Part shown: positions 30,177-64,000 of the stretch, piece by piece
How positions within the stretch are numbered: the stretch's first letter is position 1
How the letters are laid out: each line of letters begins with the position of its first letter
Source: a virus
IMG/VR virus record: IMGVR_UViG_3300046170_000470
Reading direction: 5' to 3' (one strand)
Length of the DNA: 64,000 nt
Translations under genes and position numbers: made by a program
Notes under the pieces: generated by a model
What the model was told of the DNA's origin: nothing
The model's database searches: none
The model's input: the letters and a program-made list of their open reading frames with translations, nothing else

Positions 30177-31338
30177 ATGGCAGTATATAAATTATTTCCC
30201 GAAAAAGATACAACTATATATTCAGCATATCCTGTTATGAATACAGGATTAGATGCAATTTTAGAAGTATCTAATACAGTACCTTCAATTGCTCCTTCCC
30301 CTAGGGTTGCTAGAGCATTAGTACAATTTAATCAAGATGAAATTGAAGATGTTGTAAATAACAAAATTTCAGGAGCAAATTGGTCTGGGAGTTTAAAATT
30401 ATTTATAGCTCAAGCCCAAGGTATTAACTTAGATACTATTATAAAAACATATCCTGCTTCTGAAAATTGGAGTAATGGAACAGGTGAGTATGGAGATTCC
30501 CCCCCAAACCGTAAATGGGACTAGTTGGAAATATATTAATTATTCTGGTTCAGATATTTGGAAAACTGGTGGGTATACTCCGTATGTAACAGGTTCCTAT
30601 TCAGGTAGTATTAGTACGGGTTTAGCTAATGGAGTAGGAGGTAACTGGTATACAGGATCGGGTTATATAGATGGAGAATTAGTTGCTAGTCAGTCATTTG
30701 GTTTAAGATCTGAAAAAGATTTGGACATGAATGTGACTAATATTATAAATGCATGGTATTCATCCTCAACTGAATCCCCTATTAATCCTATAGATAATAA
30801 TGGTTTTATTTTAAAATTAACAAGTAGTGTTGAATATAGCACTTCTAGATCAATTCAACCTATATTTAAATATTATTCAACAGATACTAATACAATTTAC
30901 CCCCCAACTTTAGAGTTTAAATGGGATGATCAATCTTTTGAAACAGGTAATCTATTAGAAATAACAACCTCAGATTTGTTTGTGTCTTTAGATAATAACC
31001 CAGGAACATTTAGATCAGAAAGTGTAAATAGATTTAGATTAAACGTGAGGGAGCAATTTCCTATCCGTACATTTCAAACATCATCTCTATACACTACAAA
31101 TAAACATTTAAATAATGAATCACTATATGCTATAAAAGATTTAGATACAAATGAATTTGTTATAAATTTCGATTCTAATTTTACTAAAATATCATGTGAT
31201 CCAAATGGGAATTATTTTGATATTTATATGAATGGATTAGAACCAGAAAGATATTATAAAATATTAATAAAAACTACTATTAATGGTAGTACTATAGTTA
31301 AGGATGAAGATTATTACTTTAAAGTAATTAATGGGTAA
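30177..31338 (+). CDS. structural protein; two ORFs joined across a frameshift in the C-run near 30500
   Basis: 30177..30524 and 30475..31338 read as one protein (…YGDSP-QTVNGTSW…). Confidence 0.7.
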
Positions 31339-31778
31339 TGGAAAAAAAAGTAGACGTAAAAAAGAAAGTATTTAATAAACCCCAATACATTAAAACTATA
31401 AATACAAAGTTTAATGAATTGGGAGTTACAGATATAGTTGAAGATATAGAATCTACTGTAACTGTAAATGATTTTTTTCAATATTATGATGAATTATTTT
31501 TTGAAATTCCTTCAACTGGACCTAAAAATTCCCATGAATATTTAGTTAAAACTAGTGGTGAATATATAAATTATGACCAAGATAGTGATATAGTAAAAGC
31601 ATTACAAGAAGAAATTACATCTTTACGAGAAGAAAATTTACAATTACAAGTAGATATAGTTAAGGCTCAAACTGGAGAAAATATATCAATTACACCTTCA
31701 TTAGATGCTCAAGTTATTTCTACTGATAATACTGATGTCTTAAATTCTATTGGGGCTGGTGGTTTAAACGGATTATAA
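31338..31778 (+). CDS. hypothetical structural protein
   Basis: ORF track, coiled-coil segment. Confidence 0.7.
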   Translation: MEKKVDVKKKVFNKPQYIKTINTKFNELGVTDIVEDIESTVTVNDFFQYYDELFFEIPSTGPKNSHEYLVKTSGEYINYDQDSDIVKALQEEITSLREENLQLQVDIVKAQTGENISITPSLDAQVISTDNTDVLNSIGAGGLNGL

Positions 31779-31779
31779 A

Positions 31780-34700
31780 ATGGAAGATAAAGTTTTAATT
31801 TTACCTGTAGATTCACAAACATTCGAAGTGGTGGAATATTCGACTGAAGATACTTCTCTAATTTCTTCTTTTGAATTAGACACTGAATTTTCCAAGTCAT
31901 CAGACTACATTGAATACTATATATTTGATGAAAATCAAAATATAATTTTTCCTAATTCTACAACCGAACTTTTATCTTATAGTGTAAGAGATGGGCATGT
32001 AATGATAGATCCTAAACAGGATTTACAAAGGAATGACTTTGATGAGGGTAACTATTATATAAATTATAACTTTTATAGAAAACATCTTAACTCTGATATA
32101 CTAAATAAGTATTATATAGAAGAAATATCCTCAGATAGAACTGAAATTAGATTAAATTCAACAACTATATCTAATTCTGATATTGAAACTTCAACAAATG
32201 AATTTACCAATTATAGAAACACAAAAGATTATTTTGTTGATTTTTATTTAAATTTTGGGGACAACAATTTAATAATAGCTAATAATGCCCAATTAGATGT
32301 TATAAATGAAACAGACTATTCTATTTTAATTAAATTATACTCCCCACTCCCTTCAGATTTTAATTTGAAGTCACAATGTTGGGTTATAGAAAAAATATCT
32401 GAAGATCAATCTTATCAGGTTAAATTTCCTATACCTGTATTTGATCCACAAGATTTTGAATTCATAGCAGGGCCTAATTTAAGTTTAGATATAAAAGATG
32501 AAACTGGAGTTTCTTCACAAGAATATTCTTACGATACTTTAATTAATTCGTCTATTACATCTTCTAATTCTCAAATTCAAAGTTTATTAGCAGAAAAAGG
32601 AATTAAAATTAACGTAAATTATGAGAACTTTTCAAATTATGTTAAATTTTCTTCAGCTAAAATTAGGTTAGAAAACTTTTATTATAAAGTAGGATTAATT
32701 GAAAATTATACTAATCAAATTACTACTTTAGATTCTAATATAACTAGTAATACTTCTACTTCTACTGAATTTAGCTCCTCAAAAGCTGTATTTGAAGAAC
32801 AAATAAATTCTATTATTAAGAATTTTGATGGGTATGAATACTTCCTTTATTATAATTCTGGATCAGATTTTAGTTATCCTAAATCTAATTCATCCCTTCC
32901 TTATACTTTATATTCTACAGGAAGTACAGAAGTATTAGAATGGATAGGTAGTGCCGACTCTACAAACGACTTACTATGGAGGGTTTAGCCCTTTCAGCAT
33001 CAAATTATGATGAAGACAACCAAGATTATTTATATTGGAATATCCCGGAATATCTAAGAGATGATCCAAATAATAGACAATATGAATTGTTTATTGATAT
33101 GGTAGGCCAACACTTTGATAATATTTGGATTTATACTAAAGATATAGTAAACAAATTTGATGCGGATAACCGTTTAAATTATGGTATTTCTAAAGATTTA
33201 GTAGCAGATGCTATTAAAGACTTTGGTATTAAATTATATTCAAATAATTATAATACTAACGATTTATATAAATCATTTTTAGGCATAACCCCATCAGGAA
33301 ATACCTTTCCTCAAAATAACATTCAATCTTACTTCCCTGTATCTCCAGGTAATGAGTACATAGATACCCGTATATCTGCATCAAATGACATAATGCCATT
33401 AGACGATGTTAATAAGCGATTATATAAACGAATATACCATAATATACCGTATTTACTTAAAACTAAAGGCACAATAGCTGGATTAAGAGCATTAATAACC
33501 TCTTATGGTATTCCTGATACAGTTTTACGTATAAATGAATTTGGTGGTAAAAATAAAATTAATAAACAAGATTGGGATTATAAACAAAATATATTTAATT
33601 ATGCTTTAGAAGTAAGTAAAGATAGCTATTTTAGCTCTTCACTTACCCCAAACACCAATTTTTCTACAACAAACCCAGAAACAATACAGTTTAGATTCAA
33701 AACACCAGGAATACCTACATCAAGTACTTATCAATGTTTATTTGCTACTGATACCTCAAACCGGTTAGTAATAGAATATACAGGGTCTAGTTATGTAAGT
33801 GGTTCCCATTCAGGATCTATAGCTGATCCTTATAATGAATATGGTACTATAAAATGGGTTGATGGGCTAAATCCCGAAATAAATGTTAGTGCATATTTAC
33901 CAATATTTAATGGTGAATGGTGGTCAATAATGCTAAATGCAGATGCTACTACAACTTCTTTATCTGTAGCTAATAGTATAGATAATAAAATTGGTTTCTC
34001 AAGTTATGATTCAGATGATAGATATAGTAACTTTTACCACATTGCAGATAATGCTACTTTTCCTTACCCCTATGGGTTTCAATTGTCGGGTCAAAGCTAT
34101 GAACCTTTTTCAGGGTCAATTCAAGAAATAAGATATTATTCTTCTAGCATTAATACTTCTTCTTTTGAAGATTTTGTACTTAACCCATTATCATTTAATG
34201 GAAATGGATCAACAACATCTGATGAATTAATATTTAGAGCGGATTTAGGGAGTTTATCTTCTACTTCTAGTAGAGAATCAATACACCCTAAAGTAACGGG
34301 TTCATGGGGTATAACTTCATCTTTTGCAAACGGAGATAGCAATTTTATTTTAGAAAACCCAACATTCGTTTCTAATAAAGAATTTATATATCAAAACCAA
34401 CCCTTCCAAGGTATTAAAAATAAAATTAGTGATAAAATTTCAATATTTGAAAATATATTACCTGAAGGAGATACTTTATCCTCAAAAAGATCAATTCAAC
34501 AATATTCTTATTTAACCCAAAGTACTACCCCAGATGCTGATTATTTAGAAGTAGCCTTTTCTCCAACAAATCAAATTAATGATGATATAACAGCAGAATT
34601 AGGTAACTTTAATATAGGTGATTATATAGGTGATCCTAGACATATATCAGAATCAAGAACAAATTATCCTGATTTAGATAAATTAAGAGACCAATATTTT

Positions 34701-36099: not shown

Positions 36100-36116
36100 T
36101 AAAATAGATATAAAAA

Positions 36117-42991: not shown

Positions 42992-45058
42992 ATGGCCAAA
43001 CAACTCAATTATTCTGGATCTGCATTAAATAATGCAATTTCCCCAGGTTTAACTATACGCGCAGACCATGTTACTCAATCTATAGATGCTTTTACAGGTG
43101 CTGAAGATTATGATATCACAATATCAGGATCTTTTGGAGTAACTGGACCAACTAGTTTAACTGGTTCTTTATCTGTATCTGGACTCACAGAAGCTTCCGA
43201 TGGTGCTAATACAGTAATGTGGGACTCATCAACAAATCAATTATTTTTCACCGGTTCTTATGGTGAAAGTAGTATTAATACCTCATCAGGTTCCTCAGGT
43301 TCCTCAGGTTCTTCTGGTTCATCAGGAGAAAATGGAACCCACGGTTCTTCAGGCTCATCAGGATCATCAGGTGTAAGTGGTTCTTCAGGCTCATCAGGTT
43401 CTTCTGGTTCATCAGGAGTTAATGGAGGTAATGGAACACATGGTTCCTCAGGCTCATCCGGAGAAAACGGAACACATGGCTCTTCAGGCTCTTCAGGCTC
43501 TTCAGGCTCAAGCGGCACAAGTGGCTCTTCAGGAGAAAACGGAACACATGGCTCTTCAGGCTCTTCAGGAGAAAATGGAACCCACGGTTCTTCAGGCTCT
43601 TCAGGATCATCAGGTGAAAGTGGAACACACGGCTCTTCAGGCTCAAGTGGTTCATCAGGCTCAAGTGGGTCAAGTGGCTCATCAGGAGTTAATGGAGGTA
43701 ATGGAACACATGGCTCTTCAGGCTCTTCAGGAGAAAATGGAACCCACGGTTCTTCAGGCTCTTCAGGTTCATCAGGCGAAAATGGAACACATGGCTCTTC
43801 AGGCTCAAGTGGTTCATCAGGTTCATCTGGCCCAGCAATAGAAATTCTTGATGAAAGTACATCTTTAACAACAAGTGTTACATCTATAGATTTTCAAGGT
43901 GATGGTGTTGAAGCAACTACTACTAATGGTGACGTAATAGTAACTATTTCAGGGGGTGGTTCAGGCTCTGGCTCAAGTGGCTCTTCAGGCTCAAGCGGTT
44001 CATCAGGCGCAAACGGTTCATCAGGCTCAAGCGGCTCATCAGGCTCATCAGGTGAAAATGGAACACACGGTTCTTCAGGCTCATCTGGAGAAAATGGAAC
44101 CCACGGTTCTTCAGGCTCTTCAGGATCATCTGGAGAAAATGGAACACATGGCTCTTCAGGTTCATCAGGCGAAAATGGAACACATGGCTCTTCAGGATCA
44201 TCAGGTGAAAATGGAACACATGGCTCTTCAGGATCATCTGGAGAAAATGGAACCCATGGCTCGTCAGGCTCAAGTGGTTCATCAGGCGAAAATGGAACAC
44301 ATGGCTCTTCAGGATCATCTGGAGAAAACGGAACACACGGCTCGTCAGGCTCTTCAGGTTCATCAGGCGAAAATGGAACACATGGCTCATCAGGATCAAG
44401 TGGTTCATCAGGAGTAAATGGTGGTGGAGGTGGAGGTATCTCTACTGTATTAAATAATACAATTAGATATGAAGCTTATAGTTCTACTAATGATAAAGTG
44501 GAAATATTATCTACAGGTACATTATATACAGGTTTATCTTGGAGTAGAAGCTCAACTACTGTAACTGTTACTTCTACTTCTCACGGTTTATCTAATGGTG
44601 ATTATATTGTAGTAAGAAATGGTGCCGATGATTATTTATATGCTAGTATTACTTATATAGATGCTAACTCATTTTCTTACACTTCAGGTACTTCTGGAAC
44701 TGCTTCTGGTACAGATGGAGCATATGTAGTTGCAGCAGAAGTAACAACATATTCTTCTTCAGGGTGTACTATAGCTTGTGCTTCAGGTGGGGATGTTCAA
44801 ATAATTAGTATAAAAGCTACTTCATCAGGTTCATCAACATTTACAATCACAATGCCCACTAGCATAAGTAATGGAGCAGGTGCAAACACCAGTAGATATA
44901 ATCTTAACCCACCAATTATAGCTGTATTTGCTGATGGTGGGGGGTACAATGCGAATGGTACTGTTTCTATAAATACTATTAGCAACTTTAACCAATTCCA
45001 AGTAGGAGGGTTAACAACAGGTTTTAGTGGTTATAGTGTAATAAGAGCTACTTTTTAG
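42992..45058 (+). CDS. Gly-Ser-Ser collagen-like fibre protein 1
   Basis: Two long (GSS)n/GENGTH Gly-X-Y tracts; C-terminal beta domain. Confidence 0.8.
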   Translation: MAKQLNYSGSALNNAISPGLTIRADHVTQSIDAFTGAEDYDITISGSFGVTGPTSLTGSLSVSGLTEASDGANTVMWDSSTNQLFFTGSYGESSINTSSGSSGSSGSSGSSGENGTHGSSGSSGSSGVSGSSGSSGSSGSSGVNGGNGTHGSSGSSGENGTHGSSGSSGSSGSSGTSGSSGENGTHGSSGSSGENGTHGSSGSSGSSGESGTHGSSGSSGSSGSSGSSGSSGVNGGNGTHGSSGSSGENGTHGSSGSSGSSGENGTHGSSGSSGSSGSSGPAIEILDESTSLTTSVTSIDFQGDGVEATTTNGDVIVTISGGGSGSGSSGSSGSSGSSGANGSSGSSGSSGSSGENGTHGSSGSSGENGTHGSSGSSGSSGENGTHGSSGSSGENGTHGSSGSSGENGTHGSSGSSGENGTHGSSGSSGSSGENGTHGSSGSSGENGTHGSSGSSGSSGENGTHGSSGSSGSSGVNGGGGGGISTVLNNTIRYEAYSSTNDKVEILSTGTLYTGLSWSRSSTTVTVTSTSHGLSNGDYIVVRNGADDYLYASITYIDANSFSYTSGTSGTASGTDGAYVVAAEVTTYSSSGCTIACASGGDVQIISIKATSSGSSTFTITMPTSISNGAGANTSRYNLNPPIIAVFADGGGYNANGTVSINTISNFNQFQVGGLTTGFSGYSVIRATF

Positions 45059-45083
45059 TAAATTACAATATATTAAAATTATT

Positions 45084-45114
45084 AAATCCTCCATATTGGG
45101 GGATTTTTTTTTTT
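45084..45114 (+). terminator. intrinsic terminator
   Basis: AAATCCTCCA-TAT-TGGGGGATTT followed by a T-run. Confidence 0.8.
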
Positions 45115-45124
45115 ATATTTATAA
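45115..45124 (+). promoter_or_regulatory. late promoter motif ATATTTATAA
   Basis: Directly after the terminator. Confidence 0.7.
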
Positions 45125-45160
45125 TAAAATATTCATATTTGCAAATTAAATATTTAAAAC

Positions 45161-48100
45161 ATGGCTAACCAACCTTTTTACGGTAAATTATCTTTTGCTA
45201 CCCCTACAAGTCTTAATGTAAGTGCTTTTTATGGTGATACTACTTCAGGAGATAGGTGGATTACAAATATTTCCACCTACCCAGGATACGATAAAGACTT
45301 ACTAATAGTAGGATTAGAATTAAATGACGTAGGAGGTAATTTTGGGGGAAGCATTCCTATAATCACCACAGTTGATTTGGGTAATAATAGAGTAGAGGTT
45401 AATATAGCAGCTACCACCACCACTGCATCCCCCGGGATTTTTGCTGCTTCTACCCCTAGTGGGATATACTTTTTCCCCTCAGCATCACTTACAGATCTTA
45501 ATTTAGAAATTGGTGTTAATGATATTACAGGAAGCTTAGATACAGATTTTCAAGAAGGGGATACTAAATATATTATAATAGGTCAAGCTGCTAGTACTGG
45601 TGGTACTATTAAATATGGTAGATTTCATCAATATGTAATTTCTGAAGTAAAATATAGAGGGAGCTCTGATTTATCCTTTTATATAACTTGGGATGAAGAA
45701 GGAACTGAAAGTGGTTATGGGGATAAATTATATGGTGGTTCAAACCAAACACTTCCTATAACATCACTAACCCCTAGTGAATCTTTAGCCCCAATATTTA
45801 CCCGAGCTTTATCAGGATTTGGTGATTTAGCTATTGGGTCTGATATAGCTGCTTACCAAATAGCACTAAATAATTTTTTTGATACAGCTTTAGTCGATAT
45901 ATATTCAGGTAGCGACCTAATTCAAGGTAATGCTGATTTTATAAAATTTACGGGTTCAGGAGTTGAAAGTATTGAAGTATCTTCAAGTGGAGATAATACA
46001 GGAGTTACTGTTACTATCCAAGGTGGTGGTGGGGCAGACACAGATTGGTTTGAAGGCGACACATATTTAAGTGCATCAAAAGATGTCCTTATTACAGGTA
46101 GCCTAAATGTATCTGGCAGCGCTGAAATAACTGGATCTACCAGTATACTTGGAGATTTAACCGTTGAGGGTACAGGATCTTTTAGTGTAATACATACAAT
46201 ATACGAAACCTCTTCAATTATATATGCTAGCGGTTCAACCAAATTTGGGGACACATTAGATGACACACACCAACTTACAGGTTCTGTTGGTATAACTGGG
46301 TCCCTATCTATAAAAGATTTAGAAGAAGATAATTCATTAACTAAAACCTTAGTAATAGATGATGAAGGCTTAATAAAATATTCAACATCCGGAGGAAACC
46401 ATAGTAGTGGTACTTCAGGCTCATCAGGCTCATCAGGCTCAAGTGGCTCATCAGGCTCAAGTGGCTCATCAGGTGAAAATGGTACCCACGGATCATCAGG
46501 CAGCTCAGGTTCATCAGGTGAAAACGGAACACATGGTTCATCAGGCTCAAGTGGCTCATCAGGTGAAAACGGAACACATGGCTCATCAGGCTCAAGTGGC
46601 TCATCTGGAAGCTCAGGTTCATCAGGTGAAAACGGAACACACGGCTCATCAGGCTCAAGTGGCTCATCTGGAAGCTCAGGTTCATCAGGTGAAAACGGAA
46701 CACACGGCTCATCAGGCTCAAGTGGCTCATCAGGCGAAAACGGAACACATGGTTCATCAGGCTCAAGTGGCTCATCAGGCGAAAACGGAACACATGGTTC
46801 ATCAGGTTCATCAGGATCAAGCGGTTCATCTGGAAGCTCAGGCTCATCTGGAGAAAATGGAACCCACGGCTCTTCAGGCTCGTCAGGATCATCAGGTGAA
46901 AATGGAACACACGGCTCTTCAGGCTCAAGTGGTTCATCAGGAGTAAATGGTTCCTCAGGTTCCTCAGGCTCAAGTGGCTCATCAGGATCAAGCGGTTCAT
47001 CAGGAGTAAATGGTTCCTCAGGTTCCTCAGGCTCAAGTGGCTCATCAGGATCAAGCGGTTCATCAGGAGTAAATGGTTCCTCAGGTTCCTCAGGCTCAAG
47101 TGGCTCATCAGGATCAAGCGGTTCATCAGGCTCAAGTGGTTCATCAGGAGTAAATGGTTCCTCAGGTTCCTCAGGCTCAAGCGGTTCATCAGGTTCAAGC
47201 GGTACTTCAGGTCTTTTAGATTTAAGTGGTAGTTTAGAAAACGGTTTAATCACTTATGATGGTGATGGAACTGGAACTATTGAATCTAATGCTTCATTTG
47301 ATGGAAATACTTTAACAATTACAGGTAGCTTAATATTAACAGATACTGCTTCTATTGGTTATCTTGAAACAATATACGAAATCTTCATCTATAATATATA
47401 GTTCAGGTTCAACCAAATTTGGGGATACATTAGATGATACCCATGAATATACAGGTAGTGTAACAATTACAGGTTCTTTAGGAGTATTAGATCTTGAAGA
47501 AATGCCAACCGAAACTGCAACTGTTGTAGTTAATAGTGATGGTACATTTGGATATAGAAATAATGCTGCTAGTTCAGGTTCAAGTGGCAGTTCAGGTTCA
47601 TCAGGCGAAAATGGAACACATGGATCTTCAGGCTCAAGTGGTTCTTCAGGATCTTCAGGCAGCTCAGGCTCATCAGGCAGCTCAGGCTCTTCAGGCTCAA
47701 GCGGCTCATCAGGCTCATCAGGCGCAAACGGTTCATCAGGCTCAAGCGGCTCATCAGGCTCATCAGGTTCATCTGGAACTAGTGGCTCATCAGGCAGCTC
47801 AGGCTCATCAGGAGTTAATGGAGGTAATGGAACACATGGTTCATCAGGCTCATCAGGCTCATCAGGGTCAAGCGGCACTTCAGGATCAAGCGGTTCAAGT
47901 GGCTCATCAGGAGTTAATGGAGGTAATGGAACACATGGTTCTTCAGGTTCATCAGGCTCTTCAGGAGCAAATGGAACACATGGTTCTTCAGGCTCTTCAG
48001 GATCATCAGGCTCAAGTGGCTCATCAGGTTCAAGCGGCTCAAGCGGCTCTTCAGGAAAAAATGGCTCATCAGGCTCTTCTGGTTCATCAGGAGAAAATGG

Positions 48101-49370
48101 AACACACGGCTCCTCAGGTAGCTCAGGCTCATCAGGTACTTCTGGAGAAAGTTTAGGGGGAGGGTATATCCATACTCAATTAGCCTCCTCAAGTTTATGG
48201 GAAGTAACTCACAGTTTAAATACAAGACCTTTAAATGTAGATGTATATAACTCAGGATACCAAGCAATACTTACAGAATATGTAACATTCCCAGATGAAA
48301 ATACTGCTACAATTGAATTTAATGGAGATAGTGAAGCAGGATATGCAATATTCTCAAGTATTTCAGCCTCATATACCCAATCATTAGCCACATTAGATAT
48401 TGTAACAAATAATGGCAACACTACTACAAATGATATTACAGTTGGTGGTATAACTGCAAGTGGATTAACATACCCAGATACAGATGGTACAGAAGGCCAA
48501 GTATTAACTACGGATGGAGCTGGCAATTTAACATTTGAAACAATTGAAGATGTTTATGTAAGAGTTAAAAATGTATCAGGTACTACTTTATATAGAGGAA
48601 CTCCAGTTCATGCAACTTCCTCAGTATCTTCAGGGAATGCTACCCCTGTTATTGCAGCTTCAGCATCAGTTGCTACAACAATGCCTGCAACATTTGTAAT
48701 TTATGATGAATTTATAAATGATACAGATGAAGGTTTAGCTTTATTATCAGGATTTATCCAAGGAGTAGATACTTCTACATTTAAAGTAGGTGAGGTAGTA
48801 TATGTAGGTGAAAATAGTGGATTTACAAATGTTAAACCTACAGGATCAAATAATTTAATCCAAAACTTAGGTATAGTAACTAAAGTTCATGCCTCAAATG
48901 GTAGTGGATGGATTTATGGTTCAGGTAGATCAAATGATGTACCAAACCTACCAGAAGGAAAAATATGGGTTGGATCTAACACATATTCAGTAACTTCATC
49001 AATTTTCAGTTTAGATGAACCCAATAGTATAGCAACAGTAGATGGAGATTTAACTGTAATAGGAACAGGTTCATTTGGAACAATTCATACCATATATGAA
49101 ACAGCATCAATTATATACTCTAGTGGTTCAACTAAATTTGGAGATACATTAGATGATACCCATGTATTTACAGGATCAGTTAATATAACAGGATCTCTAG
49201 AAGTAACTGGAAGCCTAAATGTCTCAGGTAGTTTAATAGTTGATGGTCCAATTGTAAGTACAGTATTTGAAAATTCATATTCAAGTGATACGGAAGCAGG
49301 AGCAGCAGGAGTACCTATACATGGATTATATAGAAATGGAAATTTCTTATTTGTAAGATTAAATAGTTAA
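45161..49370 (+). CDS. Gly-Ser-Ser collagen-like fibre protein 2 (frameshift near 47380)
   Basis: 45161..47401 and 47355..49370 join within the repeated motif TIYETSSIIYSSGSTKFGDTLDDTH, present three times. Confidence 0.75.
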
Positions 49371-49391
49371 AAAAATAAATAAAAAAAAGAT

Positions 49392-51957
49392 ATGCCTTAT
49401 TCATTTTCAGGTGGTTTAATAGTAACGGGTTCAATAACTGGATCTATAGATATAGTAGCCGAAAATAACCTTTCAGGTTCAAAATTAAATTTATCTAATC
49501 TAGATGCTATTGCTGATGATACAGTATTAGTAATTGATGGGGATGGTAACGTAGGTACCAAAGAAGCTGCTGCATCATCAGGCTCATCAGGCTCATCAGG
49601 CGCAAACGGTTCATCAGGCTCAAGCGGTTCATCAGGCTCATCAGGGTCAAGCGGCTCATCAGGCTCATCAGGCTCAAGCGGCTCAAGCGGCTCATCAGGC
49701 TCATCAGGCGCAAACGGTTCATCAGGCTCATCAGGGTCAAGCGGCTCATCAGGCTCATCAGGCTCAAGCGGCTCAAGCGGCTCATCAGGCTCATCAGGCG
49801 CAAACGGTTCATCAGGCTCATCAGGGTCAAGCGGCTCATCAGGTACATCTGGTTCATCAGGAACTAGTGGAACATCAGGTTCATCAGGTACATCAGGTTC
49901 AAGTGGCACTTCAGGTACTTCAGGCACAAGTGGGGGGGACAGGACAAAGAGGTATAGATGGTGCCATATCAGCACCCTACTTTTATGATCCTTTTACAAA
50001 CGCCGATTCTGGTGCCGGAAATGGTAGTATAAGGTTTAACAATTCTACTATTACATCTGCAACAACAGCTTATGTAAGAGATGATGATAAAAATGGAAAT
50101 GATTGGGAAGATTTCTATGATGTTATAGCCGGAGTATCTAATTCCGATGCCAAAGCGTATATGCAAGTTTCGGCAAAAGACAATCCGGCTGATTTTGTAT
50201 TATTTGAAATAACAAGTGCCTTTAATGGTACCAATATATTTAATTTTACTATAAATGCCCTAGCTTACTCTTCAGTTCAAAACCCCTTTAGTAATTTAGA
50301 GAATATAACCTTATCTTTTTCAATAGCTGGTAATGATGGTACATCAGGCTCATCAGGCTCATCAGGCTCATCAGGGTCAAGCGGCTCTTCAGGAGCAACT
50401 GGTTCATCAGGTTCAAGTGGTACTTCAGGTGCCCGAGGACCCGAAGGCTCATTTGGTGGTGCTTCATTCCAATATCGAGTAGATAATGCTACAACAGGAG
50501 ATCCAGGAAATGCCCATTTAGGGTTTAATAGTCTTGCACAAAAGAACTCCACCACTATAAGGATTAGTACAGAGGATGCTGATAACAATGACATTTCAAA
50601 TTTCTTAAAGACTATAGATGATTCAACTTCTACAATAAAGGGTCATTTTAAAATAAGTAATTATTTAGACTCTGGTCAATTTTTATTATTTACAATATCT
50701 ACCATTGTAGAAACAACCGAAGATTATTATACAATAACTTGTTCTAATGTAGACGCAAGTGCAAATAGTCCGTTTGATGATGATGAACAAGTAATTATTA
50801 CATTTGCAAGAACTGGAGATAAAGGAGATGATGGAACTTCAGGTTCATCAGGGTCAAGCGGCTCTTCAGGCTCTTCAGGCTCTTCAGGCTCATCAGGCGG
50901 AAACGGCTCATCAGGCTCATCAGGCTCATCAGGCGGAAACGGCTCATCAGGCTCATCAGGCTCTTCAGGCTCTTCAGGCTCTTCAGGCTCTTCAGGAGCA
51001 ACTGGTTCATCAGGCTCATCAGGCTCATCAGGAGTAAATGGTGTAGGTGGGGGAGGTAATAGTCCCTACGAGTATTCTTCTTCTGTTTCCTCATCGGGGA
51101 TACAACCAGTTTCAGGTTCAAACACTGCAAGTGGTTTTTATTCTGGAATAGGATCTGGATTTAGCAACACCGCAAAGGGCAATTCCTCTCATGTAAATGG
51201 GGGTGAGTATAATAATATTTGTAAACAAGGTTATCTGTCTACTATTGGTGGTGGTTCTTATAATATAGTAAGTTCATCTTACAGCACTATTGGTGGTGGT
51301 AATTATAATAGTATTAGTGGTTCCGAATTTTATGATAAATTTGCTACAATTGGTGGTGGTTTTTCAAATTTAGTTAGTGGTTATGCAAGTACTATAGGAG
51401 GTGGTTATCAAAATCGTATAAATACATATGGAAGAAGTCATACTATTGGGGGAGGATGTAATAACACAGTTTCCTCATTCGGTGAATCTGTAATTGCTGG
51501 TGGAAATTTAAATACTATATCAGGATCAACTTCCATCTACAGTGGTATTTTAGGTGGAAATTTCAATACCATCAAACATGCGAACTCATTTATTATAGGT
51601 AGTAATTTAACATCCTCAGCAGTTTGTACAACATTTATGAATAATGCTTGTGTTATTGGAGATGTAACAGCAAATGATTTTATTACAACATCTGATAGAG
51701 ATTTAAAAACAAATATCCAAGAAATTGAAAATGGTTTAGATATTATTAAACAATTTTCAGCATACGAATATGAAAAATTAGGTAAACAAGATGCTGGTTT
51801 TATAGCTCAAGAAGTAGCAGAAGCAATTCCATATGCAGTATCTACTGGTACTAATGGGTATTTAACTATGAAAGACAGACCCGTATTAGCTCATATGCAT
51901 AACGCAATAATTGAACTAGAAAAACGTGTTAAAGCTATTGAAGACCAATTAACATAA
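49392..51957 (+). CDS. collagen-like tail fibre with C-terminal peptidase S74 intramolecular chaperone (frameshift in G-run near 49935)
   Basis: GSS tracts, STIGGG-x-N repeats, TSDRDLKTNI…GFIAQEV. Confidence 0.8.
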
Positions 51958-52871: not shown

Positions 52872-52873
52872 TT

Positions 52874-53827: not shown

Positions 53828-56800
53828 ATGCCAAGTATACAACTTTCATTTGATAAAAATAGTTTTACATCAGCAACCCCTGATTGGGATTTAGCTGGTG
53901 AATATAGTAATGGATTAAGATTTAATACTATATCCAAAACATTAGAATTAGATAATACTAATCATGGTTTAGTATCTTTTACTATATCACCTTCAGGCAC
54001 CACAGATTATAATTTTGGTTCTGTCCATTTCTCTACTCCCAACGGTAGTATTGTATCAGTTGCTATAGCTCAAAACGATTTATACCTCCCCCATAATTTA
54101 GAAGGAGGACCAAGTTCTCATATATTTAAAGATGAGACAACATCAACCTCTTCAATAACTTATTATGTAATTGTTAATGGAGACCCTGATAATGTAACAT
54201 CTTTATTAAATATATCTATAGCATTAGCTAAAGATGGAAGTATACCTAGTACAAATCCTACAATAGATCTAAGTTGGGATTGTTCTCCTTCAGGAGGAAC
54301 TATATATGAATATGAAATGGGGCTACATACTTGGTCTCCATATGATGCTAAAAATGATACAGGTGATAATCCAACATTAACAACAAAATTATATTCTTTT
54401 AGCCCAATCTCAGATTGGACATCATTATCTAATAAAAGAGTTTATAGTTCCCCATATTTCGAAAACCCAGCATTAAATTATTATTATGGGTATGGAGATA
54501 AAGTTTATAGAGTTGGGGAACCATGGAGTAGAAGTTATGGCCTTAGATATTTTTATGAAACTAGAGTTACTTGGCATTGGTTCTTTAAAAAGAGGCAAAG
54601 AACAACTTTAAAAACTATTGGTCCCGAAGAAACTATAGTAAATAATGAATATGATGGTTATCAAAGTTGGGAGTCTTTAGCATGTACAGAACCTACAATG
54701 AGAAATGTTGGAAGAATTAGACAACGTTACAATAATAACACTTTAACCCAACCCGAAAAATATAGATATTATTTAGGATTCCACCCCACAATAAAAAATA
54801 GATCAAATTCAAGTGATGCCAAATCTGAGTACCCAGGATATTCATATAATAGAGTTGCAGGCCCCTTTACTCAATGGAGTTATAGTAAGAAAAGAAGTTA
54901 TGGTATTACTGGATTAGTACATGCACTTTCTAGATTAACAACAGGAATTATAAATGGGTATAACCCTAGTTCAATGGGACGTTTTCCTTTTTGGAGTGTA
55001 GCTGGTCCTTTAGGAATAGCAGCACTAGCCGCACTTGGAGTAGGTGGGGCAATTGCTGGTGAAGTACTTGCTATATTAAACTCATTAGGAGGACCTTTTG
55101 CAAAAGTAACAGCATGGCTAGGAACTCTCCTTGAGTCCTCAGCAACGGGGAATTGGATAGTTGTTGGTCTTATGCTTGTTGCCTTAATTATTAGTTTTAT
55201 AAAGGCTCTAAAACCACGAACAATTTCATCTCGAGAAGTTTGTAATAAGTTTCTTCACCATTTTACTTCTACTCCCTATATTAACCAAAGTAATATAATT
55301 TATAAGGATGATACTTTTAGTACTAGAAATTATGGTTATTATAGTGATGGGGTATACTATTATTACCAACCTCAAAATAGTGGGGTTAATTTTAAAGAAT
55401 TATCTTATATTAATGCTTGGAATTTAGATGAAGACAACCCACAGTTTTTTACTGATTATTCTTACCCTGCAGATAACCCTACACTAGTAACAGACTTTAA
55501 AAAATTAATTTTATTACCCTATTGTTCAGGTAAACCTATACCTTATTGTGGGTTAGATGGAAATAATAATCCCAATCCAATATATAGTAGTAAAGCCTTC
55601 TCTCACACCGTAGAATATACTTGTTGTGCTTTAGAAGATTGTAGTAATCCTACAGTTATTTCACTCCCCGAAGGATTTGTAAGAAGTTGTATTAGTCAAG
55701 CTGATGCAGATGACCAAGCAGAGGAACACTTTAGTGCTTCAATAGAATATGCTGAAAACCATTCTTCATATGGTCAAACTTTATATGAATCAATAGGACA
55801 ATTAGATGTAAGTTTTACCCACGAAATAAAAGAAGAAGATAACCCAACAGTATTATCTCTATTTTATGATATAAGAAGTGGATCAGATGCTCCTATTGGT
55901 ACCCCTTTATATTATGATTTTACAGGATGTCAAAAGGCATTACCTGGATACTATGCTACTGGTAGTACTAGTAGTTCTTATCCAAAATATTATTATAAAG
56001 TTGAAGATGGGAAAGTAGCTGCTATATATACTCAAAGTGCTGCTTCATCTACTACCGTAAGTCCCGGTAACTATCCTATAATTACAACAAATGAAGGATC
56101 TAGTAGTAATTGGTATTTAAAAAGTAACAATAGATCATCACTTTCATATTATGTTTTATCCACTAATGATAGAACATTTGATGTTAACAGCTTACTTACA
56201 AGTTCTCCTTATACTTTAAGTGCAGGACATATAATTTCAGGATCTTATAGTAATGATTCATTTCAAAAATATGCAAGTTATAATAGCAATGGGATAACTA
56301 GTACAAACACATCAGAACAAGGAACAGGATGGTATGCTCCTTTAAATGGGTGGAAACCTGAAGATGAAGATTTCTTCTTTTACCAAAACACCTTAGAAGA
56401 TTGGTTAGGTGGAACGGCATATGCTACTTCCCAATCAGCTATTTGTACCTCAACACTTAATATTACTCGTTATCATGATGGAGTAGGAAATGATCCCAAT
56501 TTAGGTGATAAAATTTATGATACTAATAATATAGAAGACCCAACGGATGATGGGTTTATAAGATTCTCTTCAGGATATTATCTACAAGTGGTAGATGGAG
56601 TAGTTTCTAATATTACTTCATGTACCGCATCTTCCCAATTTTCAGGAAGTACAATAACAGGTTCTCTTGATGGGGCATGTGTCCTTTCTATAAATACATT
56701 ATATGAACATAATGGAAGTTCTTCCTTCCCCACAGTAGGAGATACAGTTTCAGTCTCTGGAGGTAGTACTGTCTCTAATGGATTTATTAACACTAGCATT

Positions 56801-57613
56801 GGTGCATTACAAACAGATAGTGATGGTATGATAGTTGATATTATAGATTGTTCCTCATATACAGGATTACCACTTGATATGGAAGTTGGAGTCAATAGTA
56901 TATTAGGTGAAAGTTGGTATGGTTACTCGGATCCAAATAATTTAAGTCTTAATAGTAATGATGTAACAGGTGATGGAGCAGAATTAGTAAGTGGGTTCCT
57001 TGGAGCTAGTCTTGGAGAAGGTGCAACTGATTGGAGAATAAGCTGGCATTTAATAACTTGGTTAGGATGGAGAGATGATAATGTTTATATGGCATTAAGA
57101 AAAACAAGCAATGTAGCATCCCTCCCCTTTACATCCCTTAGTCTTACTACTGATCTTTCTAAAGAAGCAAGCCACCTTTTTTGTGATAACACAGATTATG
57201 GTCTGAATGCCACCAGCACAAATATTTATTTATATTCTCCAACAGCAAATGGATATGAGGATTATGCAACATCTATTATACCTGGAATGAGTGTTACAGG
57301 AACAGGTGTACCTAGTAATACTACAGTTCTGGCACCACCATCTTGGAGTCAGGCTCTTGGTAGATGGACAGTACCTGTAAATAAAACTATTACTTATAAT
57401 AATGTATGTGGTAATTTATTAACATTTACTAAAAATAATCACACATCAACTTATTATAATAACTCCTCTGCTACTGTAACTACTTATACAAGTGTTAATG
57501 ATGTAGCAGGAGGATCAGCAGATTATATAGTATATAAATGGTCAAGTACATCCAACCCATTTGTACAATCTGGACAAGATGTAGAAGTTAATTTTACTTA
57601 TTCAACTCCTTAA
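53828..57613 (+). CDS. large multidomain virion protein with hydrophobic hairpin, DUF5977-like segment and Cys-bounded repeats
   Basis: FWSVAGPLGIAALAALG…LVALIISFIK; LPEGFVRSCISQADADDQA; two C…HxG…P..GD…C modules. Confidence 0.7.
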   Translation: MPSIQLSFDKNSFTSATPDWDLAGEYSNGLRFNTISKTLELDNTNHGLVSFTISPSGTTDYNFGSVHFSTPNGSIVSVAIAQNDLYLPHNLEGGPSSHIFKDETTSTSSITYYVIVNGDPDNVTSLLNISIALAKDGSIPSTNPTIDLSWDCSPSGGTIYEYEMGLHTWSPYDAKNDTGDNPTLTTKLYSFSPISDWTSLSNKRVYSSPYFENPALNYYYGYGDKVYRVGEPWSRSYGLRYFYETRVTWHWFFKKRQRTTLKTIGPEETIVNNEYDGYQSWESLACTEPTMRNVGRIRQRYNNNTLTQPEKYRYYLGFHPTIKNRSNSSDAKSEYPGYSYNRVAGPFTQWSYSKKRSYGITGLVHALSRLTTGIINGYNPSSMGRFPFWSVAGPLGIAALAALGVGGAIAGEVLAILNSLGGPFAKVTAWLGTLLESSATGNWIVVGLMLVALIISFIKALKPRTISSREVCNKFLHHFTSTPYINQSNIIYKDDTFSTRNYGYYSDGVYYYYQPQNSGVNFKELSYINAWNLDEDNPQFFTDYSYPADNPTLVTDFKKLILLPYCSGKPIPYCGLDGNNNPNPIYSSKAFSHTVEYTCCALEDCSNPTVISLPEGFVRSCISQADADDQAEEHFSASIEYAENHSSYGQTLYESIGQLDVSFTHEIKEEDNPTVLSLFYDIRSGSDAPIGTPLYYDFTGCQKALPGYYATGSTSSSYPKYYYKVEDGKVAAIYTQSAASSTTVSPGNYPIITTNEGSSSNWYLKSNNRSSLSYYVLSTNDRTFDVNSLLTSSPYTLSAGHIISGSYSNDSFQKYASYNSNGITSTNTSEQGTGWYAPLNGWKPEDEDFFFYQNTLEDWLGGTAYATSQSAICTSTLNITRYHDGVGNDPNLGDKIYDTNNIEDPTDDGFIRFSSGYYLQVVDGVVSNITSCTASSQFSGSTITGSLDGACVLSINTLYEHNGSSSFPTVGDTVSVSGGSTVSNGFINTSIGALQTDSDGMIVDIIDCSSYTGLPLDMEVGVNSILGESWYGYSDPNNLSLNSNDVTGDGAELVSGFLGASLGEGATDWRISWHLITWLGWRDDNVYMALRKTSNVASLPFTSLSLTTDLSKEASHLFCDNTDYGLNATSTNIYLYSPTANGYEDYATSIIPGMSVTGTGVPSNTTVLAPPSWSQALGRWTVPVNKTITYNNVCGNLLTFTKNNHTSTYYNNSSATVTTYTSVNDVAGGSADYIVYKWSSTSNPFVQSGQDVEVNFTYSTP

Positions 57614-57669: not shown

Positions 57670-57928
57670 ATGGCATATTTAAAAGGACAGGTTGTTTCCG
57701 GAAGTTCATTCCTTGGTAGGACCCCAATTAATAACTGGGTCACTAGTAGTCCAAGGAGAATCGGCATCATCAGATTTTTTTATTATAAAATCTGGGAGTG
57801 CCGACCTATTAAAGGCAACTAGTAATGGAATAATTCAATTTCATGTACATGAAGATTCATATACCCCCCCTGCTTCTTTAGGTGGAATTTTCTTTCATTC
57901 TTCTTCTATGTATGTTGGGTTAGAATAA
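57670..57928 (+). CDS. small structural protein (frameshift near 57710)
   Basis: MAYLKGQVVSGSSF joins VGPQLITGSLVVQG… of the 57692 ORF. Confidence 0.55.
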
Positions 57929-57990
57929 AAAATATTTCATATGTATAATAAAATAACCTTAATATAATAATCTTTTTAAACACAATTTAA

Positions 57991-59634
57991 ATGGCAACAT
58001 GGAAAAAAGTAGTGGTATCCGGATCGGCGGTATCACAATTAAATAACGATTCCGGATATTTAGTCTCAGGACAATCAGGTGCGGTGGTCCTTTCAGGATC
58101 CTTCAGTGGTTCATTCCAAGGAGATGGTACTAATTTAACAGGAATTTCAGCCGATACTTTAGCAAATTCATTAACAGATGGTAATGGTATTGCAGATTTT
58201 TCTTTTAATGGTTCAGCAGGAGCTAGTGTTGCTGTTGAAGCAGATGGCTCTACCTTATCTGTAGGATCAGGTGGCGTAAAAGTTGCAGATGCTGGAATTA
58301 CTGCTACTCAATTAGCAACTTCAATTGCTGGTGACGGTTTATCTGGTGGTGCTGGTACAGCATTAAGTGTAAATGTTGATGGAACAAGTATTACATCTTC
58401 AGGTGACAATTTAACATTAGCAGGAACTACATTTAGTTCTTCTGTTGATTCTAGAATTGACGCTGCTCAAACTCAAGCAACTACTAACTCAGCTTCACTT
58501 GCTGCTTTAGATGCAACTTATGCAACTGATGCTGCTTTATCCGCTGTAGAAGCAACTGCTTCAGCAGCTAGAAGTGTAATTGCAGGTGATGTTACTACCA
58601 ATGCTGATGATATTTCTACTAATGCAGGTAATATTTCTACCAATGCAGCCGGTATTGCTTCTAACTCAGCTTCAATTGCTGCTTTAGATACAGATTTTGC
58701 TACTGATGCAGATTTAACTGCTTTATCAGCTTCATTATCTGCAAGAGATACTGTAAACGAAGGTGATATTGATACATTACAAGCTGTACAAGGCGCTTTA
58801 GTCGCTGCAACAGCTTCTTATGCTTCATCAACATCAGTAACAAATGCTTCAGCTTCATTAGCTGCTGATGTTACTGTTAATGCTGGTGATATTGATGGTT
58901 TAGAAGCTGTACAAGGCGCTTTAGTTGCTGCAACATCTTCTTATGCTTCATCAACATCAGTAACAAATGCTTCAGCTTCATTAGCTGCTAGTATTACTAC
59001 TAATGCAGGTAATATTTCTACCAATGCGAGTGATATTGATGATTTAGAAGCTATTCAAGGTGCTTTAGTTGCTGCAACAGCTTCTTATGCTTCATCAACA
59101 TCAGTAACAAACCTTTCTTCTTCATTAGATGCAGCTAAACAAGATAATATTAGCGTATCAGATACTTCAGGACAAGGTGGAATTGATTTAACATTATCAG
59201 CTGATAATATTTCAGGTACAACTGTAGGATTAGGTGCTTCAGATAATGTACAATTTGCTGATATACTTGCTACAGGTGATGTAACAGTACAAGGTGATTT
59301 AACTGTACAAGGTACTACAACAAGTATCAATACTACTAATTTAGATGTTGAAGATAAGTTTATCTTACTTAACTCTGGATCCGCTAACCCGGATGAAGGG
59401 GGTATTGTAATTGATGAAGGATCAGGTACTGGTCACGCATTCTTACTTGATTCAGCTTCTACTCGATTCGGATTTAAAGCATCTTTAGATAGCACCACTA
59501 CAGGTGATGTTACTCCAGAAGCTTTTGCTTCAGCAGTAGTAGATTTACCAGCAGGACATTCAGATACATCTGAATACCAGAAAAATGGTAACATTAAAAT
59601 TGATTCAAGTGGAAATATTTTCATTTATTCATAG
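57991..59634 (+). CDS. tail fibre protein with Ala/Ser-rich coiled-coil repeats
   Basis: Three copies of QGALVAATASYASSTSVTN; GDLTVQGTTTSINTTNLDVEDKFILLN. Confidence 0.8.
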   Translation: MATWKKVVVSGSAVSQLNNDSGYLVSGQSGAVVLSGSFSGSFQGDGTNLTGISADTLANSLTDGNGIADFSFNGSAGASVAVEADGSTLSVGSGGVKVADAGITATQLATSIAGDGLSGGAGTALSVNVDGTSITSSGDNLTLAGTTFSSSVDSRIDAAQTQATTNSASLAALDATYATDAALSAVEATASAARSVIAGDVTTNADDISTNAGNISTNAAGIASNSASIAALDTDFATDADLTALSASLSARDTVNEGDIDTLQAVQGALVAATASYASSTSVTNASASLAADVTVNAGDIDGLEAVQGALVAATSSYASSTSVTNASASLAASITTNAGNISTNASDIDDLEAIQGALVAATASYASSTSVTNLSSSLDAAKQDNISVSDTSGQGGIDLTLSADNISGTTVGLGASDNVQFADILATGDVTVQGDLTVQGTTTSINTTNLDVEDKFILLNSGSANPDEGGIVIDEGSGTGHAFLLDSASTRFGFKASLDSTTTGDVTPEAFASAVVDLPAGHSDTSEYQKNGNIKIDSSGNIFIYS

Positions 59635-59657
59635 TAAATAGTACTTTTAATAAAATT

Positions 59658-59683: not shown

Positions 59684-59713
59684 ATCTTATATTTATCACT
59701 ATATAATTAAATA

Positions 59714-59932: not shown

Positions 59933-59939
59933 ATTTCCC

Positions 59940-59949
59940 ATATTTATAA
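59940..59949 (+). promoter_or_regulatory. late promoter motif ATATTTATAA
   Basis: Intergenic, before the structured leader. Confidence 0.7.
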
Positions 59950-60011
59950 CTATATTATAGGCCATAACGGAAGTGGGCTCTTTGAGTAACCAACCATAAT
60001 AAAACATAAAC

Positions 60012-62789
<2,778 letters not shown>

Positions 62790-62790
<1 letters not shown>

Positions 62791-63503
62791 TGGCTTTACC
62801 CTCTGCAGGAAATCCTCTTAGTTTTAGCCAAATTAGAACAGAACTAAGTGCCGCGAGTACAAACGTATCTTTACGTAGTATGAGCAGTACAGCTGGTAAA
62901 TCAACACCAGATGCTGTATCCGAATTTTACGGTTATACTCATTCATCTGTAGATCTAGGATTATCCTCAGCTTTATATACACAAAATTTATCATCAACTA
63001 CCTCTTGGGATATATTCCAAGGTGATAATGAAATTGCTTCATTAAGTGACTATAATGGTAGTAATGGTAGATTAGTAATCCAATATACAAATGGAACCTG
63101 CTGTACCACCTACCAAGGAGACTTTCAAATTGGAGCCACTATAATTATAGGTAATACTACTTATAACTTATCTACAAGTAGAACAGGATGGCAATCCACA
63201 ACCACAAATACTAGTACCTATAGTGGGGCAAGTTGGAGTGATTTAGGAACATCAAGATCTGGAGGTAGATGGAGTGTAACTAATGCTGTTCCTTCTTCAT
63301 CAGGAACAGGTACATCAGTGGATACAACAGTCGAATCAACTGGTTATCATGTATATGCAGAAACAAGTGGAGGAAGTATGTCAGGTTATAACTTCTGGTT
63401 ACGAAGCCCAATCACGGCTTTTGATGATGCTTTAGAATTTAGTTTTGTTTCTTTTGGTCCTAATGTAGGAACATATAAAGTATACCTTGACGTAACATCT
63501 TAA
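62790..63503 (+). CDS. fibre-tip/adhesin-like protein with C-terminal MAM-like segment
   Basis: MALPSAGNPLSFSQIRTEL…SEFYG N-terminus; GYHVYAETS…LRSP. Confidence 0.6.
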
Positions 63504-63512
63504 TATTTATAA
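63503..63512 (+). promoter_or_regulatory. late promoter motif ATATTTATAA
   Basis: Motif match, but only 3 nt before the next ATG. Confidence 0.4.
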
Positions 63513-63515
63513 AAT

Positions 63516-63812
63516 ATGGAATTTAATTGGCACATAAATAATTTAACTAGAAATACATCTGACGGATTAGTATATGATATAGAATATGTATATGAAACTA
63601 TCGTTAGTGGATCTATAGCTCAAAAATATGGCAACATAGAAGTATCAGGATCATCAACAGAAGACAGTTTCGTGCCTTTTGAAGATTTAACCCAAGATAT
63701 AATATTAGGATGGATTACAGGAAGTTTTGATATTCCTACACTCCAAACCGAACTATCTTCATCCGTAAGTAAATTAGTAAGCGGAGAATCTACACAGGAA
63801 ACCCCTTTTTAA
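63516..63812 (+). CDS. small fibre-associated phage protein
   Basis: FVPFEDLTQDIILGW motif, typical of small proteins next to fibre genes. Confidence 0.65.
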   Translation: MEFNWHINNLTRNTSDGLVYDIEYVYETIVSGSIAQKYGNIEVSGSSTEDSFVPFEDLTQDIILGWITGSFDIPTLQTELSSSVSKLVSGESTQETPF

Positions 63813-63866
63813 AATAGGTTGTATATCTGATTTATTTTTATTATATTGGGTCAAATTTAAGGTTAT

Positions 63867-64000
63867 ATGAATATATCTCAACAGTATAAATGTATCTTTA
63901 TCCATGTAAATAAAACTGCAGGGAGAAGTGTTAGCACTACTATATTCGGAGATATTAAAGAACACTTAACCTCAAAAGAACTTTTTGATTTATATGATAC
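63867..64000 (+). CDS. sulfotransferase family protein, 3' partial
   Basis: MNISQQYKCIFIHVNKTAGRSV contains a 5'-PSB-like KTAG motif; TAAGGTTAT leader. Confidence 0.7.
   Translation, partial: MNISQQYKCIFIHVNKTAGRSVSTTIFGDIKEHLTSKELFDLYD

Follow-up and report, generated by a model that had tools for sequence, protein, structure and literature searches.

The [ST]GS tripeptide on the tail exterior of a marine T4-like phage lineage: a possible serine glycosylation tag

Why do so many unrelated tail proteins of one phage carry the tripeptide Ser/Thr-Gly-Ser ([ST]GS)? The question is raised by the late genes of the virus record IMGVR_UViG_3300046170_000470. The window, which is the whole stretch of 64,000 nucleotides analyzed in our study, comes from an uncultured marine T4-like myovirus. 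Among cultured phages, the Flavobacterium phage vB_FspM_immuto (immuto) is its nearest relative, with a gp6-type baseplate wedge protein 44% identical to that of the window. Early or auxiliary genes were found up to ~24 kb, followed by inner baseplate genes and, from nucleotide 30177 onward, by the outer-baseplate and fibre genes (Table 1). The motif was found in the tail proteins of hundreds of relatives, four to six times above chance, and it marks the tail exterior only, i.e., the fibres, the outer baseplate, the outer sheath domains, and the neck adaptor. As an explanation we tentatively put forward, at somewhat less than even confidence, that the motif tags serines of the tail surface for glycosylation.

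Enrichment of the [ST]GS tripeptide

The open reading frames (ORFs) of the window starting at or after nucleotide 30177 were found to contain 78 [ST]GS sites when the collagen-like G-X-Y runs were masked, against an expectation of 21.4 +/- 4.5, and none of 1000 composition-matched per-protein shuffles reached this number. The ORFs before 30177 contained 4 sites (3.75 expected). The initial annotation had pointed to the recurrence of the motif in late proteins and had suggested shuffled late and early sequences, with the repeats excluded, as a check; all of its quoted examples were present, and composition did not explain the enrichment. The first-order Markov expectation for the late ORFs was 39.8 (Poisson p 5e-8), a conservative test, since the dipeptide counts behind it are raised by the motif itself. 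When the four collagen-like fibre genes were removed, 47 sites were seen against 14.4 expected (p 9e-12). Among the 78 masked sites, 56 were isolated and 22 lay within 8 residues of another site. SGS (46 seen, 12.3 expected) and TGS (32 seen, 9.2 expected) ranked first and second among all tripeptides of the window. The control tripeptides SGT (10/9.2), TGT (8/7.4), AGS (0/5.8), and GSS (9/12.3) were not enriched; NGS and SSG were likewise at or below expectation, and DGS was not enriched. The enrichment was uneven, and the proteins encoded at 53828-57613 (5 vs 3.05), 52862-53812, and 62790-63503 were devoid of it.

An enrichment that simply follows from the abundance of Ser, Gly, and Thr, from the collagen-like repeats, or from a DNA word would be in keeping with the S-, G-, and T-rich late proteins and with the 241 sites counted when the repeats are included. 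We give this explanation practically no chance. The sites were encoded by many different codon triplets, so that the signal lies at the protein level and a DNA-level word was ruled out. Composition, collagen repeats, and local S/G clustering were ruled out by the masking, the shuffles, the Markov expectation, the removal of the fibre genes, and the permuted tripeptides, none of which was enriched.

The analysis was extended to a clade sample of 80 IMG/VR relatives, whose proteins were split into those upstream and those downstream of gp6. Downstream of gp6, SGS was seen 586 times against 90 expected (6.5x) and TGS 436 times against 71 (6.1x); SGT (50/71) and TGT (42/62) were both at 0.7x. The upstream proteins contained SGS 83/55 and TGS 24/50. 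The related tripeptides TAS, SAS, and TSS were found at 4.0x, 3.2x, and 3.2x expectation, respectively. NGS (0.9x), DGS (1.1x), and SGN (0.5x) were not enriched, and GSS and SSG reached at most 1.7x. The fuller rule was [ST]-[G>A>S]-S, with Thr present at 41% of the first positions; [ST]-N-S, [ST]-D-S, [ST]-G-x, and x-G-S were not enriched.

In 67% of the window sites the motif was preceded by I, V, Y, F, or L, hydrophobic residues alternated around it, and the fibre proteins contained motif runs with a period of six (TGSxxV hexapeptides) as well as TGSLSGSFTGSADI-type 14-mers. These features, together with the preference for Gly over Ala and Ser at the middle position, speak for the main rival of a glycosylation tag, namely a purely structural role in which [ST]-G-S is a tight, unmodified strand-exit or turn element of beta-solenoid fibres and surface loops. 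The exclusion of third-position Thr and of first-position Asn/Asp is not explained by turn propensities. Asn or Asp at position one and Thr or Asn at position three are compatible with a generic beta-turn; since none of these was enriched in the relatives, generic turn propensity is insufficient. The purely structural explanation is, in our judgment, a serious one but on the unlikely side.

It is further weakened by homologous folds which manage without the motif. Within the clade, the fibre module of immuto contained 60 sites against 13.2 expected (non-structural proteins 8 vs 14), and the baseplate module of a deeper relative, the Microcystis phage Mel-JY01, contained 45 against 6.3. Outside the clade, the structural and fibre proteins of T4 contained 12 sites (15 expected), PA5oct 3 (5.8 expected), and the crAss001 fibres 4 (4.0 expected); in the Flavobacterium siphovirus 11b, [ST]GS was seen 8 times (5.2 expected) and [ST]GT 13 times (6.1 expected). 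The most informative control was LR756508, a 484-kb uncultured outgroup phage with a 38% identical gp6 and, downstream of it, homologues of the window proteins. Its downstream proteins were only weakly enriched (6 sites vs 3.0), with unrelated residues at most of the clade sites and a few ancient sites kept, e.g., H-P-S-G-S and V-V-S-G-S. T4, PA5oct, and LR756508 ruled out that the motif comes with T4-type baseplate, fibre, or sheath folds in general, and phage 11b and crAss001 ruled out that it comes with Bacteroidota phages in general. Because homologous proteins outside the clade lack the enrichment, it is a derived feature of the lineage that is not demanded by the folds.

Location of the sites on the tail

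Among the virion proteins of immuto, the sheath contained 7 sites against 1.3 expected, the major capsid protein 1 against 0.6, and the tape measure 0 against 1.1; the portal and gp6 contained none. In 59 distinct sheath proteins, every site lay within residues 1-460, a part with poor conservation at residues ~50-300 (0.06-0.37) and with values of 0.5-0.7 elsewhere. Residues ~460-738, which contained the Pfam sheath domains (conservation 0.63-0.88), were devoid of motif sites in all 59 sheaths. Judging by what is known of contractile sheaths, the N-terminal and middle stretch would form the outer domains, and the C-terminal stretch the core that faces the tube. The restriction to the outer domains is a further point against a purely structural role. 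The gp13-like head-tail adaptor contained 84 sites against 7.3 expected in 25 homologues.

The initial annotation had described the motif as independent of fold, which agrees with its presence in unrelated virion proteins, and had proposed a glycosylation system for the virion. The part of this proposal that held is a specific, virion-confined motif, accompanied by a TibC/Aah-type homologue in the structural module of close relatives (see below); its virion-wide scope was not upheld, as the capsid, portal, and tape measure of immuto were not enriched.

The conservation of the sites differed between families. Four motif sites of the 338-aa family were more than 80% conserved, whereas the 287-aa family, that of the protein encoded right after gp6, contained 8 sites at frequencies of 15-80% and 21 sporadic ones, indicating site turnover between orthologues. 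The strongly conserved sites, some of which also occur in the outgroup, are expected of a structural element; isolated loop sites that come and go within families of unrelated globular domains are not.

In immuto, G003, G004, and ~60 further relatives, the first gene after gp6 was found as a single ORF of ~380 aa, and its split in the window is either a frameshift or an assembly error. The AlphaFold2 model of its orthologue L050:11867-13000 (pLDDT, the predicted local distance difference test, 82.7) was a beta-sandwich resembling carbohydrate-binding modules (CBMs), with the chondroitin-sulfate and alginate CBMs 8wab and 7vbo as best fold matches, which suggests a predicted outer-baseplate polysaccharide-binding protein. 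The predicted secondary structure places its motif sites in the coil that immediately follows strands. In the relatives, Trp, Tyr, and His were 2-7x enriched within 5 residues of the motif. The CBM-like fold, this aromatic enrichment, and the limitation of the motif to receptor-facing parts of the tail raise the alternative that tail proteins binding host capsule or marine polysaccharide converged on Ser/Gly loops beside aromatic residues. Known carbohydrate-binding sites do not, to our knowledge, rely on a fixed tripeptide, and the motif saturates the outer sheath domains, the neck adaptor, and the regular fibre shafts, where no receptor binding is expected; we consider such adhesion loops improbable as its explanation.

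The 402- and 635-aa outer-baseplate proteins were homologous to one fused 1400-aa protein of LR756508, which contained 2 sites (0.86 expected). No relative of the 1355-aa protein was found in the PHROG or PDB searches. The AlphaFold2 model of the 338-aa protein (pLDDT 46.5) was too poor for use. The four fibre proteins contained long uninterrupted G-X-Y runs matching PF01391 (E 1.7e-45, 6e-40, 2e-26, and 4e-12), made up of Gly-Ser-Ser, Gly-Ala-Thr, and similar triplets without proline, with [ST]GS at every triplet boundary. Their non-collagen parts contained 6, 12, 10, and 3 sites against 2.1, 1.8, 1.6, and 1.6 expected and carried hexapeptide runs of the TGSxxV-SGSxxI type. The enrichment was weak in the fibre-like pair at 57692..59634 (4 vs 2.2). 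PHROGs gave no match for ten outer-baseplate proteins, and the PDB sequence searches gave none for three of these.

Sugar genes and candidate enzymes

The initial annotation had named the sugar genes of the window as the partner of the motif. The genes were confirmed, i.e., a GT4-like glycosyltransferase (GT), a nucleoside diphosphate (NDP)-sugar epimerase/dehydratase, a GT2, a weak GT31-like match, and the start of a sulfotransferase, but the partnership was not. No orthologues of the GT4-like, GT2, GT31-like, or sulfotransferase genes were found in immuto, G001 (complete), G002, G003, G005, or Mel-JY01, and in all of these the motif enrichment was equal to or above that of the window, which rules out the transferases of the window as its conserved partner. 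The annotation had itself listed equal enrichment in relatives lacking the GTs as grounds for refutation, and for these genes that is what was seen. The epimerase, 33% identical to that of immuto, was the sole sugar gene of 8690..13886 with an orthologue in the relatives. The GT31-like protein had no NCBIfam match. In G003, the DUF932 gene (98.5% identical to that of the window) abuts the next gene (70%) with no GT31-like gene between them; the GT31-like gene is therefore a lineage-specific insertion. The 44 window residues of the ORF at 63867 gave no Pfam match alone, and their full-length homologues (82-95% identical over these residues) carry PF03567. Judged by this distribution, the GT4-like, GT2, GT31-like, and sulfotransferase genes are variable accessory genes and not the conserved reader of the motif; at most they would tailor the glycan or act on host polysaccharide.

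The same annotation had compared the motif with the glycosaminoglycan (GAG) attachment site, a Ser-Gly among acidic residues that is the target of xylosyltransferase. The corresponding product, a GAG-like and possibly sulfated glycan built on Ser-Gly by the GT31-like and other transferases and the sulfotransferase, has in its favor the shared Ser-Gly dipeptide and the presence of all the named genes in the window or at its edge, with the sulfotransferase after the fibre genes. The comparison fails at the flanks, which were hydrophobic or aromatic (I, V, Y, F, L) and not D/E, and at the other positions, since Thr is allowed at the first position and Ser is obligatory at the third. In addition, the GT31 match was marginal, its gene is a recent insertion, and the named genes were not found in equally enriched relatives. 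The comparison with the relatives largely refutes such a glycan, which is very improbable, and sulfation and glycan mimicry are speculation.

A different candidate was found in the relative G003, whose genes are up to 99% identical with those of the window. Its protein L120:9977-12877 contained 967 aa and was encoded directly upstream of the sheath gene. Residues 148-488 matched residues 37-387 of the 406 of TibC (phmmer vs PDB 4rap, E 1.5e-32 to 5e-33). The match to TIGR04414, the 'strand-loop-strand O-heptosyltransferase' family, described as reading a strand-loop-strand arrangement and not a linear sequence, covered model positions 13-371 of 374 with 190.2 bits (E 5e-56), just below the equivalog cut-off of 200. 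The catalytic base Asp110 and the sugar-binding Thr226, Lys230, and Trp305 of TibC were kept, and Arg286 and Pro300 were substituted by Thr and Gly, respectively, in the alignment. The iron-finger was also kept, with Cys 439, 442, 458, and 470 aligned with TibC 339, 342, 358, and 370 (spacing +3, +16, +12). On these matches the protein is a genuine homologue of the TibC/Aah-type protein O-glycosyltransferases. It also contained a PIG-L deacetylase domain, and its gene had UDP-sugar dehydratase-type neighbours; because of these two features and the Arg286 substitution, the sugar is probably not heptose.

TibC-like relatives were found in 135 viral contigs, with the sheath gene adjacent in 76 of the 80 kept. 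The TibC-like protein of G003 had no tblastn match in the window. The complete or near-complete genomes of G001, G002, and immuto lacked its gene, which was not seen in the incomplete contigs G004 and G005 either. Among 67 distinct adaptor-sheath loci, the gene was present in 23 and absent from the interval in 44. The sheaths contained 5.87 sites with the TibC-like gene and 5.86 without it, so the gene as the cause of the motif was not supported for the sheath; the adaptors contained 3.17 and 1.27 sites, respectively, a difference confounded by phylogeny. Independence of motif density from both the TibC-like gene and the transferases of the window suits a structural element.

Small neck-proximal proteins beside the TibC-like gene were found to contain tandem TGSL-SGSF-TGSA-DI-type units, with 15-27 motifs in 192-261 residues, and no members with the N-terminal signature of this tandem-repeat fibre were found in loci without the TibC-like gene. 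In Mel-JY01 (L107 4750-8430), a 1227-aa fusion of a GT4-like part, a Glycos_transf_1 (GT-B) domain, and a TibC-like domain directly follows a fibre gene with 13 motif sites; the GT4-like part was 50% identical to the 290-aa PHROG-glycosyltransferase partner in G003. The Mel-JY01 record annotates the whole 1227-aa protein as FkbM methyltransferase, and a prolyl 4-hydroxylase is annotated elsewhere in the genome.

The TibC-like enzymes themselves (L120:9977-12877 and 98 homologues in L123-L202) were nearly free of [ST]GS, with 2 sites against 20.1 expected, as was the 290-aa GT4 partner, with 1 against 12.3; the sequences in both sets are interrelated. These low counts possibly reflect self-avoidance.

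Sugar-transferase gene sets were found in every complete clade member examined, a sample to which the genome of the window does not belong. The conserved set comprised two GT-B proteins of ~480 and 436 aa, a small zinc-ribbon protein, and a 207-aa GT2; the GT-B pair and the small GT2 were kept in immuto, G001, G002, G005, and Mel-JY01. The 436-aa protein was found in 5/5 enriched genomes tested and was absent from LR756508, T4, and PA5oct, a distribution that amounts to one evolutionary transition. The 480-aa protein also occurs in LR756508. A GtfA/GtfB-like identity was sought for the pair, and only generic GT-B matches were found, the best solved relative of the 480-aa protein being the chlorovirus B736L. 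By synteny with G005, the conserved set would be expected ~8-12 kb upstream of the window.

Possible roles of the motif and other features of the window

The specificity of the tripeptide, the homologous folds without it, the turnover of loop sites, and the exposed-only location argue that the tripeptide itself is recognized by something, and since the complete clade genomes all carry transferase sets, glycosylation of Ser would account for this with the fewest assumptions. [ST]-[G>A>S]-S would then be a short recognition tag, placed by selection on the tail exterior of the clade, and would act as the acceptor for phage-directed Ser O-glycosylation in the cytoplasm of the infected cell, giving the tail a sugar coat. 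In its most elaborate form, which we hold as possible but more doubtful than the tag as such, the clade would write a Ser-specific 'sugar code' on every outward-facing part of the tail; the code would be read by its own cytoplasmic GT-B enzymes (the ~480/436-aa pair, with a TibC/Aah-type supplement in many members), and accessory genes such as the GT31-like, GT2, and sulfotransferase genes of the window would diversify the coat. We infer the action of the candidate enzymes on the motif, as well as which enzyme acts and which sugar is added.

Several results weigh against a glycosylation tag. No single transferase tracks the motif, and the case is built on sequence comparison. The window contains zero candidate reader enzymes, the motif density of the sheath is the same with and without the TibC-like gene, and the GT-B pair sits among early genes, its co-distribution with the motif depending on the single transition. 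Some sites are ancient and kept in LR756508, and a large share of those in the fibres belong to regular 4-, 6-, or 14-residue repeats with hydrophobic flanks, which look structural. The non-virion proteins of immuto, G001, and G002 were not clearly depleted (16 sites vs 24.2), the deficit being similar to that of the control tripeptides [AN]GS (12 vs 22.3); this missing avoidance suits an unmodified structural element. If the motif is structural, the sugar genes would serve host envelope remodelling, DNA modification, or like ends, which we likewise think rather unlikely. TibC glycosylates Ser, not Thr, and the known acceptor serines of TibA are followed by G-G or A-A (PMC4358343). The acceptor Ser thus precedes G-G/A-A and does not follow [ST]-G, and the Thr found at position one is no TibC acceptor.

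The closest known systems are TibC-TibA and Aah-AIDA-I of E. coli, in which beta-rich repeats undergo cytoplasmic, Ser-specific O-glycosylation at inter-strand loops and the enzyme gene lies beside the substrate gene. The strict third-position Ser of the phage motif parallels the Ser-only specificity of TibC. The homologue of the relatives, with its catalytic Asp, three of the four sugar-binding residues, and the iron-finger Cys, is likewise encoded beside motif-rich tail genes, and the TGSL-SGSF repeat proteins recall the tibC-tibA adjacency. Unlike in E. coli, the homologue is absent from the window, as it is from many relatives with equal enrichment, the sites are [ST]-G-S instead of S-G-G or S-A-A, and the predicted substrates are virion proteins instead of secreted adhesins. 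In the mycobacteriophages Che8, Corndog, and Myrna, phage glycosyltransferases reportedly add O-linked sugars to the phages' own structural proteins, and the acceptors are said to be C-terminal stretches of capsid and tail-tube subunits. The candidate sites of our study differ in being a dispersed tripeptide on fibres, outer baseplate, sheath, and neck, known from sequence alone, and the capsid of the cultured relative was not enriched. BclA of Bacillus anthracis and the Mimivirus fibrils are Ser/Thr-rich collagen-like G-X-Y filaments on the particle surface, glycosylated by an own sugar pathway. The four proline-free Gly-Ser-Ser fibres of the window resemble them, although the phage motif is also abundant in non-collagen proteins.

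If glycosylation is correct, no dispersed O-glycosylation sequon would have been defined for a phage before [ST]GS, and the clade would be the first case of phages using the enzyme family that glycosylates autotransporters. Tail glycosylation would then be common, and so far unseen, in abundant marine phages, with a bearing on host recognition, on protease resistance, on how well the phage avoids sticking to marine polysaccharide, and on how 'auxiliary' sugar genes of phages are interpreted, and a simple sequence rule would predict the modified sites. If the motif is structural, the phage fibres and surface loops of this lineage would follow a building rule of their own, undescribed by current fold predictors and family libraries. 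Either way the matter is directly testable, since two clade members are in culture, the Flavobacterium phage immuto without the TibC-like gene and the Microcystis phage Mel-JY01 with it.

Table 1. Features of the window and TGSL-type repeat proteins of relatives; site counts are [ST]GS, seen vs expected
Feature	Coordinates	Strand	Remarks
GT4-like	8690-9817	+	Pfam; NCBIfam generic polysaccharide-type match
NDP-sugar epimerase/dehydratase	11349-12182	+	Pfam; NCBIfam generic polysaccharide-type match
GT2	12939-13886	+	Pfam; NCBIfam generic polysaccharide-type match
GT31-like (Galactosyl_T)	19797-20573	+	Pfam 26.9 bits, cut-off 23
Inner baseplate proteins	24908-30175		Includes gp25-like and gp6-like genes; zero sites
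First protein after gp6	30177..31338	+	Two overlapping frames, 30177-30524 and 30475-31338; 5 sites
Two outer-baseplate proteins, 402 and 635 aa	31780..34883	+	2 and 5 sites vs 0.3 and 0.7
Baseplate or fibre protein, 1355 aa	36117..40184	+	8 sites vs 2.0
218-aa protein and two paralogues of ~340 aa	40215..42955	+	One invariant H-P-S-G-S; 5 and 3 sites
Four collagen-like fibre genes	42992..51957	+	Pfam Collagen; last gene with Peptidase_S74 chaperone domain
78-aa ORF and 547-aa fibre-like protein	57692..59634	+	PHROG 'virion structural protein'; N-terminal V-S-G-S, L-S-G-S-F-S-G-S-F
DUF7936 protein, 98 aa	63516..63812	+	3 sites vs 0.23
Sulfotransfer_2 N-terminus, truncated at window edge	63867-64000	+	202-aa full-length homologues
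TGSL-SGSF-TGSA-DI-type repeat proteins (relatives)	L123:4093-4671, L136:777-1562, L131:4351-5016		Maximum 27 sites in 261 aa

Three further features of the window were observed. A methylglyoxal synthase (MGS)-like domain was found at 7923-8300, amid phage early genes (Pfam E 1.8e-13). The 1261-aa late protein at 53828-57613 contained a hydrophobic Gly/Ala/Leu-rich stretch at about residues 410-470 with a membrane-spanning look. At 60012-61825, a collagen-like fibre gene with G-A-T/G-P-T repeats was broken across all three frames, owing either to repeat-driven frameshifting or to an assembly error; its N-terminus was of the W-K-K-L-I-V-S-G-S type.

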